A DNA stretch of 64,000 bases, from assembly GCA_951406725.2 (NCBI GenBank), contig CATOCA020000001.1:1178001-1242000 (forward strand), in the 5' to 3' direction. Source of the stretch: Octopus vulgaris. Taxonomy: Eukaryota. The translations under genes were made by a program, and so were the position numbers. Numbering within the stretch: the first letter of the stretch is position 1; every line of letters begins with the position of its first letter. The notes beneath the pieces are model-generated. The model was not told the origin of the DNA and searched no databases. It saw nothing but the letters and a program-made list of their open reading frames with translations. Shown piece after piece: positions 14,370 to 60,860 of this stretch.

Positions 14370-14680
14370 ACACATCATTCTTGTTACCAACCTTCCTGTC
14401 TCCGCTCTTTTGTCTTTAAAAACCAACTTTGCCCCTGTTATCCAAAACTTCCGGCCTTTCAGCATATTTACTTCGTAAAAACCAGTCGCGTTTTTCTCCC
14501 TCCGTTCGCCCGCATCGGGATCTTTCTTTCTTCTTTCTTCCTTCTCTTATGTTTCCGACGAAGAGCTCCGCTCGAAACGTCATACCCTCCTTCTTCCATT
14601 TTTCCTGAGCGCCTAATAATAATAATACTTTAATTGTTCCACGTGTTGTTGTTTTTTCTGTTTTCCCGTTTGGATTAACC
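14370..14680 (+). mobile_element. PLE-type terminal cassette with minimal hammerhead-like motif
   Basis: CCGACGA-A-GAGC-TCC-GCTC-GAAAC-GTC at 14555-14581. The end TTGTTCCACGT...GTTTGGATTAAC(TA)n is shared with 21090-21155 and 58250-58315. Confidence 0.6.
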
Positions 14681-14797
14681 TATATATATATATATATATA
14701 TATATATATATATATATACATATATATGCATGTATGTATATACACGTTTATGTATTTGTTTTGCAATAATTTTGACGTGAAATCGTGTGTTGAAACA

Positions 14798-15272
14798 GAT
14801 ATTGTTGTATTTAGGAATGGTCATTTTGTTAGTTTAGCCAATAAAAAACACACGCACTATATATTTGGTGTTACTTTGCTTCAGCTTTATTTATTTTTTA
14901 CATTAATATTAATCTTCTTTCGTCACACTCCAGTGACCTCATCAGTGATACTTTGCTTTCTTCTTTCTTATTTGTGTCTCTCTCCTTACCAAAGGTCAGC
15001 CATTTTGTATTTTGTACTTTTATTGTATGTGTCTTCATACCTCTATATGGGTATACCTCTATATGTGTCTATGTTTAATTAGTGTGTGTGTGAGGGAAGT
15101 TCCTGTAATATTTGTATCTCCTGTTTATATACGTTCGAAAGAACTCTGGCCGAAATAACATTAAGTTTAATGTAAAAAATAAAAAACGCTGAAGCAATGT
15201 AACACCAAATATATAGTGCGTGAGTTTTTATTAGCTAAAATGGCAAAATGACCATTCCTAAATACAACAACA
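14798..15272. repeat. Inverted-repeat cassette (~120 bp arms) with a hammerhead motif at the inner end of the left arm
   Basis: TATTGTTGTATTTAGGAATGGTCATTTTG (14800) versus CAAAATGACCATTCCTAAATACAACAA (15244). Minus strand 14945-14918 reads CTGATGA-G-GTCAC-TGGAGT-GTGAC-GAAA. Confidence 0.8.
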
Positions 15273-16929
15273 ATATATATATATATGTGTGTGTGTGTGT
15301 ATGTGTGTGTGTGTGTGTGTGCGTGTGTGTACATACACACATCCACCTATATATACCTTATCAAACCCTGATGTATGAACGCACACACTCACTTCCAGCC
15401 CACACATATATTCCCACTTTCTTACACACAGGCAAACACAAATTGCAAGACAATATGAATTGTAGAAGAATGAGGGTAAATAAAGAAGATAAGAGAGACA
15501 TTTAGTTTGTGGAAGTGACATTGGATGACATATCGAGATCTTATTATGAAGAAGATGACTAACATAAGAGAAAGTTGATGATGAAGAATAGGCCGAAAAT
15601 GGAAACAACGATGAAGCAAGCAGCAGCAGCAGTAGTAGTAGTGGTAGCAGTAGTAGTAGTAGTAGTAGTAGTAGTAGAAGAAGAAGAAGAAGAAGAAGAA
15701 GAGGAAGAAGAAGAAGAAGGAGGAGGAGGAGGAGGTGGAAGAACAAGAAGAACAAGAAGAAGAATATGATGATGATAATGATAAGCTACAACAACAGCAA
15801 CAACATTAAAACAACAATAAGAGAAGTGGCAGAAAATGTAGGAGCTGAAGAAAAGAATGATGTAAAAAATAAGGAGGGAACGAAGGAGTCTGTCATGAAG
15901 AAGACTTGAATATATTTCTGATCTTATAATAATTCTGCTTGTCATTATGTTAATTACTCCGTCGGTAACGCTTTCTCGTGATTAGAGAAAAAGAGGGAGA
16001 ACGAAAAAGAGCGAGAGAGAAATGTCCATGACCTGAAGTAGAAGGAGCGTGACTGTAATGCTTTCACGTGATTAGTTGAATGGAATGAGAGACCAAGAGA
16101 AAGAAAAAGAAATGAGAAAACGAAAGTAAGTCGAAGAGTGGGGCAGAAAGAGAGGGAGAAGGAGAAAAGGGGAGAGAAAAAAGAGCGAGGGAGAAAAGAG
16201 GGGGAGAACATGTGGTTGGGGGAACGTAATATTTATTACGTGATGAAAAAGTTAGTTGAAGGTAGTGATATTGAGGAGGTTTACGAATATAATCTTAGCA
16301 GAGCGGTGATGTTCTGATGGTGAGATTAAAGGAAGGCAGAGAGGTAGATAAATAAATAGATAGATAAACTGTAAAAAATGAGTGAAAGGGGAGTGAGAGA
16401 CGGTGGTAGTGGTTGTGGTGGAAATGGTAATTGTGAGTGCATAATGCAAAGTAACTTTTGAATTGAACTAAGTATTTTATACCACCTTTCACTTAACGCA
16501 TGCTCATAACTGCAGTTCTGTTAAATATTCACACTTATTTACAGTGCCATATGTAAGGCGTATATATATATATGTCTATATATATATATATATATATATA
16601 TATATATATATATATGTATGTCTAAATATATATATATATATATATATATATATATATATATATATACATATACATATTTATATTTATTTATTACAATTAA
16701 GAAAAATACACGTTATAATTAAAATATATATATTTCAATTAAAATAAAGTTGGACACACAGTAAATTCCATCTCAACAAGATCCCGGTTTATGTTGTTAC
16801 TGCTTCTCATACATACTGCCGTTGGTTGTGCTTCTGCTACGGCGAGATAGAAATTCGCAGTTTACGGCTATTTGGTCCTCGTTCCAATGCTGTGCTTATG
16901 AAATAAGCAAATTACAAAACTTGACTGAA

Positions 16930-17703
16930 CAATGGATAGATAAAGAAGATTAGAAGCTACTCGCGAGAGGGTTAGGCACTACAGACAGCTGATAATTGAA
17001 GAACATCGGTAAGAAATCAGAGAAAGGGACGAATGGTACCAACAGATGAGACGATCTGCAATAGATGAAGAGCAACGCAAGGCAGAATTGTAGTGAGAGA
17101 GAATGCGAGACCAAGGTAGAAGACAGGATGAGGAAGAACAAACACAGTAGAAGGAACAACAAAGATTGATATTTCTGCGGAGAATGGAAAACATGAATGA
17201 TATGCAGCGTGCGCAGTATCAGGACCAACAGAAAAGCGTAATGTAACAGAGAAGGGAGAATACGGATGATTTGGAAGGGGCCGCTTGTCTCCAAGGTCAA
17301 ACAGAGAGACATCAAGATGGAGTTGCAAGTATGAATGCTGAACAGGCGTTACGTTTGCGAGATGAACAGGTGCAACGAAAGCGTGAAGCAAGACATGGAC
17401 TACCACTGAACAGACACAATAATCCTAAACGAACCTATCGTATTGGTGATATGTACTTATATTGCTAGTATTGTGGAGAACTGAACTTTAAATATGAAAA
17501 CTTCATGTTCTTTCACAATATAAAGTGAATTTTCCTCCACTGCAACTAAACCCTCAGACATTGAAGCGTTTGTCTGAGAAAATTACCAAGAGTCTGCTTC
17601 ATTTCGAAAAAAACATCAGCAATTACAACTACATATCTTCCTTTACGTCATTTGGTGTGAAACTCTCTCTGCCGCAAGGAAGAGGTCTACATTGTTTCTG
17701 TAT
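16930..17703 (+). mobile_element. Helitron RepHel N-terminal remnant, interrupted by Gypsy
   Basis: Charged repeats, then RIGDMYLYC..CG.LNF...KVNFPPLQ...HFEKNISNYN..SFTSFG...GRG..CF, typical of Helitron N-termini. Confidence 0.8.
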
Positions 17704-60300: not shown

Positions 60301-60326
60301 TAAACTACTAATATAAATATATATTT

Positions 60327-60403
60327 CTCTATATATATAAAACTGAGAATGTGTGTCTGTCTGTCTATCTGTGTGTTTCCCTAAACTTGAGAACTACACA
60401 ACC
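60327..60403 (+). mobile_element. Non-autonomous Helitron 5' fragment
   Basis: TCTATATATATAAAACTGAGAATGTGTG(TCTG)n resembles the 5' end of 38649-39197; absent from copy A. Confidence 0.6.
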
Positions 60404-60603
60404 ACTACTACTACTACTACTAACCTATTTATATAGGTTATGAGAGGTAATGGTGTGAAGGAGACCCAAATGTGTCAGGTAATGCTGTGTAAGTGCTATG
60501 GACATACTATAGTTAAGCTCCAGGTTCGGTGATTATGCAAATAAGGAGTCAAATGTAGGTCATATATTAACATGCATATATTTATATAAAATTAACAGAA
60601 TGA

Positions 60604-60860
60604 AATAAAGATCCAAGGCTGTGAAAGATTTCAGAACATTTCTAGAGAGAAAACTTTACAGCTGTTTCCGGGATATTTATGTATCTCTTCATCGGAGACG
60701 GTGTGAGAAGATGGTTAAGCAATGGATATTCAAGAATAACTATTGCTTCACCATTCTCTCACACCGTCTTCGATGAAAGAATATATAAAATATCCCTGGA
60801 ACAGCTGAAAGACCTCTCTATAAATGTTCTGAAATCTTTCACAGCCGTGGACTTTTATCT
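60604..60860. repeat. Palindromic hammerhead-bearing cassette (copy B of 23140-23398)
   Basis: Left arm, minus strand: GTCT-CCGATGA-AGAGATA..TATCCCG-GAAAC-AGCT-GTA. Confidence 0.85.

Follow-up and report, generated by a model that had tools for sequence, protein, structure and literature searches.

PLE genes and hammerhead motifs at the locus

The window, by which we mean the whole stretch of 64,000 nucleotides of Octopus vulgaris DNA analyzed here, contains ORFs of two PLE families, PLE1 (copies a and b) and PLE2, together with a set of minimal hammerhead motifs (Table 1). The translations of both families carry a C-x4-C-x2-C linker, and PLE1 copy b has the CCHH residues in its endonuclease. 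The Pfam scan, covering 150 of the 197 six-frame ORFs of at least 70 aa, gave for PLE2 a GIY-YIG match at 27268-27534 that is below the curated cut-off (E=0.0022), and most of the 57 homologues have RVT_1 and/or GIY-YIG Pfam domains. An RT with a C-terminal GIY-YIG, CCHH residues and a CX2-5CxxC linker is also found in Neptune/Nematis-type PLEs (PMC8557442), which have in common with the elements described here 5' truncation, inverted copies and microsatellite targeting. This likeness is one of domain architecture and copy structure; the window contains no full-length copy with two pLTRs.

Table 1. PLE genes and hammerhead motifs (coordinates within the window)
Feature	Position	Strand	Remarks
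Minimal hammerhead, C3-G8 with C4	14551..14585	+	Extra A after A9; 4-bp stem II, G10.1-C11.1; no loop III; stem I 3/4 bp; (TA)n 126 nt downstream; best match of the outside-built covariance model, E=0.033
Partial motif, C3-G8 core, 5-bp stem II and GAAA	14918..14945	-	Without stems III and I; borders a 120-bp inverted repeat on its inner side (14802-14922 / 15151-15270); weak model match, E=7.3
PLE1 copy a, broken 5'-truncated ORF (RT, Zn-finger linker, GIY-YIG)	21197..22510	+	tblastn, PLE homologues; translations
A3-U8 hammerhead of PLE1 copy a	22813..22847	+	G12 lost; stem II 1-2 bp; palindromic stem III
Imperfect palindrome of ca. 300 bp, two outward-facing PLE-type 3' stubs	23116..23419	.	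Duplicate 60562-60901; cores 23230(-) C3-C4..G8 and 23306(+) U3-C4..G8; duplicate cores 60695(-) and 60770(+)
Weak U3-A8 motif	23729..23759	+	4-bp stem II; A13G; loop III not palindromic (one change); no in-register stem I; missed by the covariance model
PLE2, broken ORF	26139..27646	+	Partial duplicate 63424-63998
A3-U8 hammerhead of PLE2	27847..27886	+	6-bp in-register stem I; intact GAAA; stem II 1-3 bp; G.G mismatch at 15.2-16.2; match under filter F3
U3-A8 minimal hammerhead	29666..29707	-	5-bp stem II; perfect palindromic stem III; stem I 3/4 bp; core and 3' side as in the PLE-linked motif of outside locus L080
Decayed motif of doubtful status, with its U3-A8 box at 30548	30540..30595	+	Covariance model E=10
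C3-G8 core with ca. 100-nt hairpin as stem II, uncertain	41867..41988	+	Palindromic stem III (one change); U16.1C; fold z=-2.6; hammerhead not formed in MFE fold; no (TA)n within 300 nt downstream
Further A3-U8 candidate (box 46242), missed in the original prediction	46197..46248	-	6-bp in-register stem I; U.U closure; stem II not clearly formed; no PLE ORF upstream; (TA)n 256 nt downstream; core alternatively buried in a local hairpin
U3-A8 hammerhead, left arm of inverted pair	48864..48910	-	Stem I 6-7 bp; one palindrome change; U.U at 10.1/11.1 closing helix II
U3-A8 hammerhead, right arm of the 48903/49455 inverted pair, ca. 550 bp apart	49448..49494	+	One palindrome change; U.U closure of helix II; second-ranked covariance model match, E=0.12
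PLE1 copy b, best-preserved ORF	58347..59852	+	56% to P0001 over 511 aa
A3-U8 hammerhead of PLE1 copy b	60156..60190	+	5-bp in-register stem I; perfect palindromic stem III; G12 lost; stem II 1-2 bp; covariance model rank 4

The original prediction listed 13 seven-base core boxes and spoke of at least a dozen motifs. All the boxes were located within 5 nt of where they had been placed (the one at '60690' is 60695 on the minus strand), and in all of them positions 3 and 8 form a Watson-Crick pair. The boxes are there but they are not independent, because a segmental duplication of ca. 16 kb and the inverted copies present in the window reduce the 13 sites to 10 independent loci. The duplication relates 10.7-26.7 kb to 31.9-36.2 and 51.2-64.0 kb (mostly 81-94% identical), and through it 22818 and 60161 are duplicates, as are the 23230 and 60690 cassettes; 48903(-) and 49455(+) represent a single element in two inverted copies (81%). 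In the plus arms of the cassettes (23306 and 60770) the core is U3-C4...G8, a wobble pair; these arms had not been listed. The site at 30493 was probably mis-assigned: we rejected it as a C3-G8 hammerhead, its box lying 78 nt from the GAAAC with no stem, and the U3-A8 box at 30548 fits better.

GAAAC followed by a perfect palindrome and GUH (filter F1) was found at only three of the 13 sites (14555, 29703 and 60695), this defining 3' half being incomplete at the other 10. A complete set of the core boxes N3-UGA-N-N8-A, GAAA and NUH is left at three sites only, namely 29703, 49455 and, with its 15.2-16.2 mismatch, 27853, and each of the remaining copies has at least one core change. Helix III is a perfect palindrome at 14555, 22818, 29703, 60161 and 60695, has one change at 23729, 27853, 41871, 48903 and 49455, and is absent at 14945. 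Helix I pairs in register over 5-7 bp at 27853, 48903, 49455 and 60161 and over 4 bp in the cassette plus arms, has one mismatch at 14555 and 29703, and was not found at 14945, 23729 and 30493. In helix II, an extra base after A9 together with G10.1-C11.1 is seen at 14555 and 14945, and the A3-U8 sites have merely 1-3 bp. Site by site, these defects agree with the earlier suggestion that individual copies are decayed. Genuine but eroded PLE hammerheads make up most of the flagged motifs, and the solo copies in the window are probably inactive. Co-folding favoured intermolecular pairing at all five sites tried, though not as the full hammerhead fold, and is no measure of activity. Lunse, Weinberg and Breaker reportedly described small dimeric hammerheads, with a short stem III and associated with PLEs, that cleave as dimers; the short stem III and the PLE association are shared by the motifs of the window.

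Motif frequency against shuffled sequence

There is a trivial explanation to consider, namely that these are chance look-alikes in AT-rich, repeat-rich DNA and that the covariation comes from picking paired boxes. The window was compared with shuffled sequences leaving positions 3 and 8 free and unscored, with filters designed after the motifs had been inspected. Filter F4 retained five matches, all of them paired (four independent), against a shuffle mean of 0.49 (0/200). Filter F1 gave seven matches, five of them paired, against 1.91 (1/200); with F3 the total was not above chance (25/200) and the paired matches were five against 0.68 (0/200); F5 gave two matches, one paired (12/200). In a sequence-only scan with spacers of 7-110 nt, duplicates included, there were 13 paired boxes against 4.55 expected (0/300) and 18 unpaired against 12.85 (26/300), i.e., the paired boxes exceed the shuffles and the unpaired ones barely do. 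The predominance of unpaired boxes with loose descriptors does speak for chance: only three of 20 matches to one of them were paired, and loose matching is therefore mostly background.

In the Rfam scan of the window (E<=5), the 150 best of 188 matches did not include a hammerhead, those listed being microsatellite-driven miRNA. A covariance model built solely from 42 sequences outside the window placed 14555, 49455, 60161 and 29703 at ranks 1, 2, 4 and 6 of 22, and at E<=10 it missed 22818, 27853, 23729, 41871 and 60695. Its rough E-values are weak (0.03-0.55), again in favour of chance, which probably explains 30493 and possibly 23729, 41871 and 46242. However, the sites had been chosen without using the position of PLE genes or (TA)n runs, and families outside the window covary at 3-8, as described below. 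The motif population is beyond chance, and the look-alike reading, which we regard as very unlikely, is refuted for the motif set as a whole.

Covariation at positions 3 and 8 outside the window

The 126 related loci found outside the window contained 77 strict matches, 75 on the sense strand and 60 within 750 nt of the endonuclease end. Their 3-8 pair was C-G in 46, U-A in 25, A-U in two and U-G in four. Once reduced to 42 distinct motifs, 41 were Watson-Crick (29 C-G, 11 U-A and one A-U) and one was a U-G wobble, with 19 of the 42, and nine of the 11 U-A ones, coming from one assembly. Shuffling these loci left 1.5 matches per set, Watson-Crick in five of 15. A relaxed scan returned no candidate in 33 of 65 loci; of the 31 distinct best candidates 27 were Watson-Crick and two U-G, the exceptions being a C.U (L064) and a G.G or one-base insertion (L002). 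The proposed covariation of the 3-8 pair is thus borne out across outside families. Covariation between C-G and U-A was already known (PMC4209133, PMC3088659), and in the hammerhead of the Poseidon PLE of Anolis the pair is required, single mutants being inactive and C3G/G8C giving partial rescue (PMC11167929). That ribozyme has the canonical C3-G8 and its cleavage was shown only with the protein of the element.

We did not accept C4 as a variant at the level of families. The sole outside case (L105) has the same motif as the published Neptune hammerhead of Acropora, which carries U4, and within the cassette family a sibling contig likewise reads U4; C4 may be copy-level decay.

A probable origin from decayed 3' ends of PLEs

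We consider it very probable that the motifs are decayed 3'-end (pLTR) stubs, that they derive from several PLE families of which at least two are Neptune-like, and that they were inserted at (TA)n microsatellites. A (TA)n run lies 79-227 nt downstream at nine of the 10 loci (2.1 expected; 0/5000; within 300 nt), or at eight when the 48903/49455 pair is represented by its other arm, and a (TA)n insertion bias is known for Neptune PLEs (PMC8557442). Hammerheads follow PLE ORFs at 308 nt (22818), 309 nt (60161) and 207 nt (27853), so that two of the 10 independent loci, both A3-U8, have an ORF directly upstream; the other eight are ORF-less stubs, and their origin therefore rests on their anatomy and the (TA)n neighbour. 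Reverse transcription would begin near the 3' end of the element and usually halt early, and for this reason short hammerhead-bearing stubs, sometimes as inverted pairs, would outnumber full elements. According to published work, two motifs on one tandem transcript would pair via the palindromic stem III, and the cut after position 17 would be slow or helped by the protein of the element. Selection in active lineages would have kept the 3-8 pair rather than its identity, resulting in C-G, U-A and rarely A-U.

Between 5493 and 7929 contigs per sequencing run match 58370-60855, in four out of four runs, indicating a high copy number, and several motifs are found in short high-copy stubs without an ORF. 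Such stubs could also be non-autonomous retrozyme-like elements amplifying through circular RNAs, all the more since a preprint derives animal retrozymes from PLE pLTRs (bioRxiv 10.64898/2026.07.22.740005). Non-LTR retrozymes, as the same preprint defines them, are tandem repeats whose consecutive units carry a type I hammerhead. No head-to-tail array with a hammerhead was detected in the window (TRF with period up to 500; self-BLAST), where the pairs are inverted, and the stems are minimal and not of the canonical 6/4-bp type I form, so that we find retrozymes very improbable here. Of the "PLE-type or retrozyme-like families" proposed originally, the minimal type I hammerheads of PLEs are supported and the retrozyme-like part is not.

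The inverted cassettes (23116-23419, 48818-49540 and 14802-15270) invite another comparison. They are very abundant inverted repeats between TA runs, as would be MITE-like DNA transposons with TIRs that merely resemble hammerheads. However, their arms differ in extent and match each other at only 76-89%, and two cassettes have the full hammerhead layout in each arm. The 23116-23419 cassette belongs to a high-copy family in which loose ends yield an in-register stem I and a palindromic stem III. PLEs, moreover, are known for inverted 5'-truncated copies and for opposite-strand hammerhead pairs 100-700 bp apart (PMC8557442, PMC4209133), and we hold a MITE origin to be very unlikely.

The general picture was already available: there are thousands of minimal PLE hammerheads in animal genomes, and U3-A8 covariation was reported in 2011 and 2014. 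The minimal hammerheads of metazoan PLEs, with 56 representatives in Fig. S3 of Cervera and De la Pena (2014, PMC4209133), have the same type I layout with absent or palindromic helix III and short helix I, the extra base after A9 seen here at 14555 and 14945, a placement behind the RT-EN gene, a predominance of solo copies, many families per genome and opposite-strand pairs at 100-700 bp. The U3-A8 variant is also there, with about 1,300 matches in Schistosoma mansoni. In contrast, A3-U8 and C4 appear in none of the 56 representatives of that figure (PDF text), and stem II has 3-8 bp there versus 1-3 bp in our A3-U8 motifs. The natural core variants of Perreault et al. (2011, PMC3088659) include U3-A8, stems II of 1-2 bp, the U10.1-U11.1 mismatch and a weak stem III as well, but they are largely prokaryotic or phage and have pseudoknots, and the parts of that paper available to us name U3-A8 and not A3-U8.

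The A3-U8 motifs

The original wording, in which the locus had been colonised by numerous families unrelated to one another and differing in core variant, is not supported, given the three duplicates among the 13 sites, the probable mis-assignment of 30493 and the relationship of the A3-U8 families. PLE1 and PLE2 are two related families of one clade (FastTree support 0.99, in a tree without named references), and because of this A3-U8 would be one inherited core change. They have the A3-U8 box in common, with stems I that are wholly different yet pair in register in each. Among the outside relatives, L001 and L009 combine a stem II of 2 bp with the stem III palindrome of the window motifs, L017 has no stem II, and U.U at 10.1/11.1 is found in L003, L008 and L075.

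Taken together these sequences suggest, as a tentative and rather doubtful possibility, a Neptune-like PLE lineage in which A3-U8 became fixed across families with no more than ca. 68-70% likeness in DNA and stem II shrank to 1-3 bp, a natural "minizyme" that would cleave only as a dimer or on the own protein of the element, with a second origin of A3-U8 in a separate clade (L061, L066). Possibly, a lineage that combines A3-U8 with so small a stem II is new to the literature; the literature searched, which did not cover Lunse 2017 and Przybilski and Hammann 2007, contained no relevant report of A3-U8 hammerheads. Exact pattern scans for A3-U8 gave 92 matches in prokaryote genomes and one in viral contigs, none of them by a PLE ORF; as only one of the 93 reached a stem I score of at least 7, we take them as chance. 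PLE relatives were also looked for twice in viral contigs, where none of 37 pattern matches was confirmed, and a second scan of genome contigs gave three loci that were all in the outside set before.

In A3-U8, the residue that gives way to U8 is the one to which the role of general acid, through its 2'-OH, is attributed (PMC6155905). If the lineage is real, diverged families that have all retained a purine-3/pyrimidine-8 core would provide evidence from nature that the pair matters and not the base, stem II would be able to almost vanish, and published descriptors (C3-G8, U3-A8) would miss whole PLE families. This would be a modest extension, of use to ribozyme and transposon specialists.

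Among the 40 of 221 variant sites listed from read contigs, none falls in the 60161 motif and none at 60161, 60166, 60176, 60694 or 60695. For the loss of G12 in PLE1, CpG decay is a possible but weak explanation (CpG o/e 0.81), and copy a has a C at that position.

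Number and independence of the hammerhead motifs

The hammerheads flagged in this window are real and largely known biology, but were over-counted in the original prediction. All 13 of the seven-base boxes listed there are present; the "at least a dozen motifs" reduce, however, to 10 independent loci (see table), because of a segmental duplication and because 48903 and 49455 are inverted copies of each other (self-BLAST). The duplication, of ~16 kb, pairs 10728-26661 with 31861-36151 and 51244-63963 (mostly 81-94% identical, self-BLAST), its second copy being in two pieces interrupted by later insertions. 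The supposed layout of GAAAC, palindrome and GUH holds at 14555, 29703 and 60695 (perfect palindrome), but not at the remaining listed sites, and 30493, taken for a C3-G8 site, is better read as the U3-A8 box at 30548. In the plus arms of the cassette (a ~300-bp imperfect palindrome of two outward-facing ORF-less 3' ends, or stubs), positions 3 and 8 form a U.G wobble (23306, 60770). At 41871-41988 (+) a ~100-nt hairpin occupies the stem II position of a hammerhead-like core (fold z=-2.6), and the 3' side of this motif is similar to the cassette family.

Coordinates of hammerhead loci, core variants and retroelement remnants (L numbers are outside loci; all others are window positions)
Feature	Position	Strand	Remark
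Independent locus 1	14555
Independent locus 2	14945
Independent locus 3	22818/60161		PLE1
Independent locus 4	23230/60695		cassette
Independent locus 5	23729
Independent locus 6	27853		PLE2
Independent locus 7	29703
Independent locus 8	30493/30548
Independent locus 9	41871
Independent locus 10	48903/49455
Broken RT + GIY-YIG genes	21197-22510; 58347-59852; 26139-27646		partial duplicate 63424-63998
A3-U8 hammerhead	L061:4149-4195; L066 near 2688		minimal anatomy perfect apart from the core pair; 349 nt downstream of PLE gene
C3.U8 core behind PLE gene	L064:1524-1569
U3.G8 core behind PLE genes	L048/L049; L004		L048/L049: four copies of one family
G.G or one-base insertion in core behind PLE gene	L002
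A4 core behind PLE gene	L026
2-bp stem II, canonical core	L001:51-89 and 3750-3788; L009:833-871		L001: both hammerhead-carrying terminal repeats (pLTRs)
Three unpaired bases replacing stem II, canonical core	L017, ~195 nt behind ORF end		by eye
PIF1-like helicase pieces, broken	7339-8401	+
RT, retroelement remnant	32427-34805	+
APE-RT LINE remnant	42496-45604	+
Further RT remnant	561-1250	-
Duplicated RT fragment, LTR-type in appearance	19238-19991; 54981-55734	+

Tests against chance

The window was scanned without constraining or scoring positions 3 and 8, and 200 local dinucleotide shuffles served as the control. The descriptor filters were devised with the motifs already seen and count duplicates twice. 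Filter F4 gave 5 matches, all paired, versus a shuffle mean of 0.49 (0/200), F1 gave 7 versus 1.91 (1/200), F3 gave 5 versus 2.58 (total 25/200, paired 0/200) and F5 gave 2, one of them paired. Chance in sequence of equal composition, the alternative raised in the original prediction, did not produce a similar match density under F4 and F1. In a stem-free scan paired boxes were enriched (13 versus 4.55 in shuffles, 0/300) and unpaired ones barely so (18 versus 12.85, 26/300). Matches to a loose descriptor, 3 of 20 paired, are mostly noise.

Two tests were not trained on the window motifs. A covariance model of 42 outside sequences put four listed sites at ranks 1, 2, 4 and 6 among its 22 hits, their E-values being weak, placed three more near the bottom and missed five. 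On the sense strand, a (TA)n run follows 9 of the 10 independent loci at a distance of 79-227 nt (2.1 expected, 0/5000), counting box 30548 and one arm per inverted pair; the alternative arm of 48903/49455 makes it 8/10. No hammerhead appeared among the best 150 of 188 rows of an Rfam scan of the window at E<=5.

Covariation in outside relatives

The outside set comprised 126 loci of related Penelope-like elements (PLEs) from metagenomes (the best 80 of 453 matches) and binned genomes, apparently animal DNA. Animal-type PLE genes sit on contigs of many binned bacterial genomes (L075-L126), most likely as host DNA contamination. A strict scan of all 126 loci, with positions 3, 4 and 8 free, gave 77 matches, 75 in sense and 60 within 750 nt of the endonuclease end, with 3-8 pairs C-G (46), U-A (25), U-G (4) and A-U (2); shuffled loci gave 1.5 matches per set, 5/15 paired. 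The proposed joint change of positions 3 and 8 is upheld among 42 distinct outside motifs, 19 of them from one assembly (C-G 29, U-A 11, A-U 1, U-G 1). On the FastTree tree U-A is scattered over at least three places, and the outside A-U motifs fall in a clade separate from the window A3-U8 families. A relaxed scan was less clean (27/31 Watson-Crick, 2 U-G, 1 C.U, 1 G.G or insertion) and left 33 of 65 loci without a candidate. In close relatives whose protein is 40-49% identical to that of PLE1, further peculiarities of the window motifs recur: U.U at 10.1/11.1, a stem II of 2 bp (L001, L009) and, in L017, three bases where stem II would be.

The A3-U8 families and their genes

The A3-U8 motifs lie 308 nt (22818), 309 nt (60161) and 207 nt (27853) behind broken PLE genes. 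These encode a C-x4-C-x2-C linker and the CCHH residues, both known from Neptune and Nematis PLEs (PMC8557442). Named homologues of the protein are few, 42-43% identical and for the most part from bivalve molluscs, which makes an invertebrate host probable. The families PLE1 and PLE2, 68-70% alike in endonuclease DNA, form one clade (FastTree support 0.99, 43 rows, those with <200 aligned residues excluded; frameshifts make the PLE2 row noisy). They have the A3-U8 box in common in spite of entirely different stems I, both pairing in register, so that A3-U8 counts as a single change, inherited by both and retained as they diverged. In all four public runs, thousands of contigs stack on 58370-60855, which marks PLE1 and the cassette as high-copy families. 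Among the loose contig ends there, the cassette family shows an in-register stem I together with a palindromic stem III, and a sibling carries the ordinary C3-U4-G8 core.

Mechanism, activity and novelty

Anatomy, genomic position, copy number and covariation are the directly supported parts of the mechanism. The elements would insert at (TA)n in 5'-truncated form, leaving short, hammerhead-bearing 3' stubs, which may sometimes arise as inverted pairs. Hammerheads reportedly retain activity in vitro with any Watson-Crick 3-8 pair. The decay described for individual copies is evident, and the window copies, being solo or inverted and mostly mutated, are probably inert. For minimal PLE hammerheads, PMC4209133 reports no cleavage of monomers and weak cleavage of dimers; the Anolis PLE hammerhead depends on its 3-8 pair as well as on the element's protein, and its cleavage is dispensable for insertion in vitro (PMC11167929).

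PMC4209133 already describes minimal hammerheads, including the U3-A8 variant, that number in the thousands per genome and occur as solo copies or in opposite-strand pairs, and PMC3088659 already describes natural U3-A8, 1-2-bp stem II and U.U closure; the comparison also drew on PMC6765202, PMC3884650, PMC6155905 and bioRxiv 10.64898/2026.07.22.740005. The window A3-U8 motifs differ from the published set, A3-U8 occurring in 0 of its 56 representatives (PMC4209133), and a literature search of partial coverage found no relevant paper naming it. The A3-U8, short-stem-II lineage, supported at the sequence level by two window families and one outside clade, is the only candidate for a new part.

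Other repeats

Eukaryotic repeat DNA makes up the window (37% GC, 89 tandem-repeat rows), with LINE, RT, PIF1-helicase and Penelope-like gene fragments. The PIF1-like pieces are possibly a Helitron remnant; 7010-7383 has a DNA homologue at 56693-57067. The C-terminal region of the RT at 32427-34805 presumably resembles restriction-enzyme-type non-LTR elements. Between the inverted U3-A8 arms 48903/49455 there is a 162-bp palindrome (90%) at 48982-49143.
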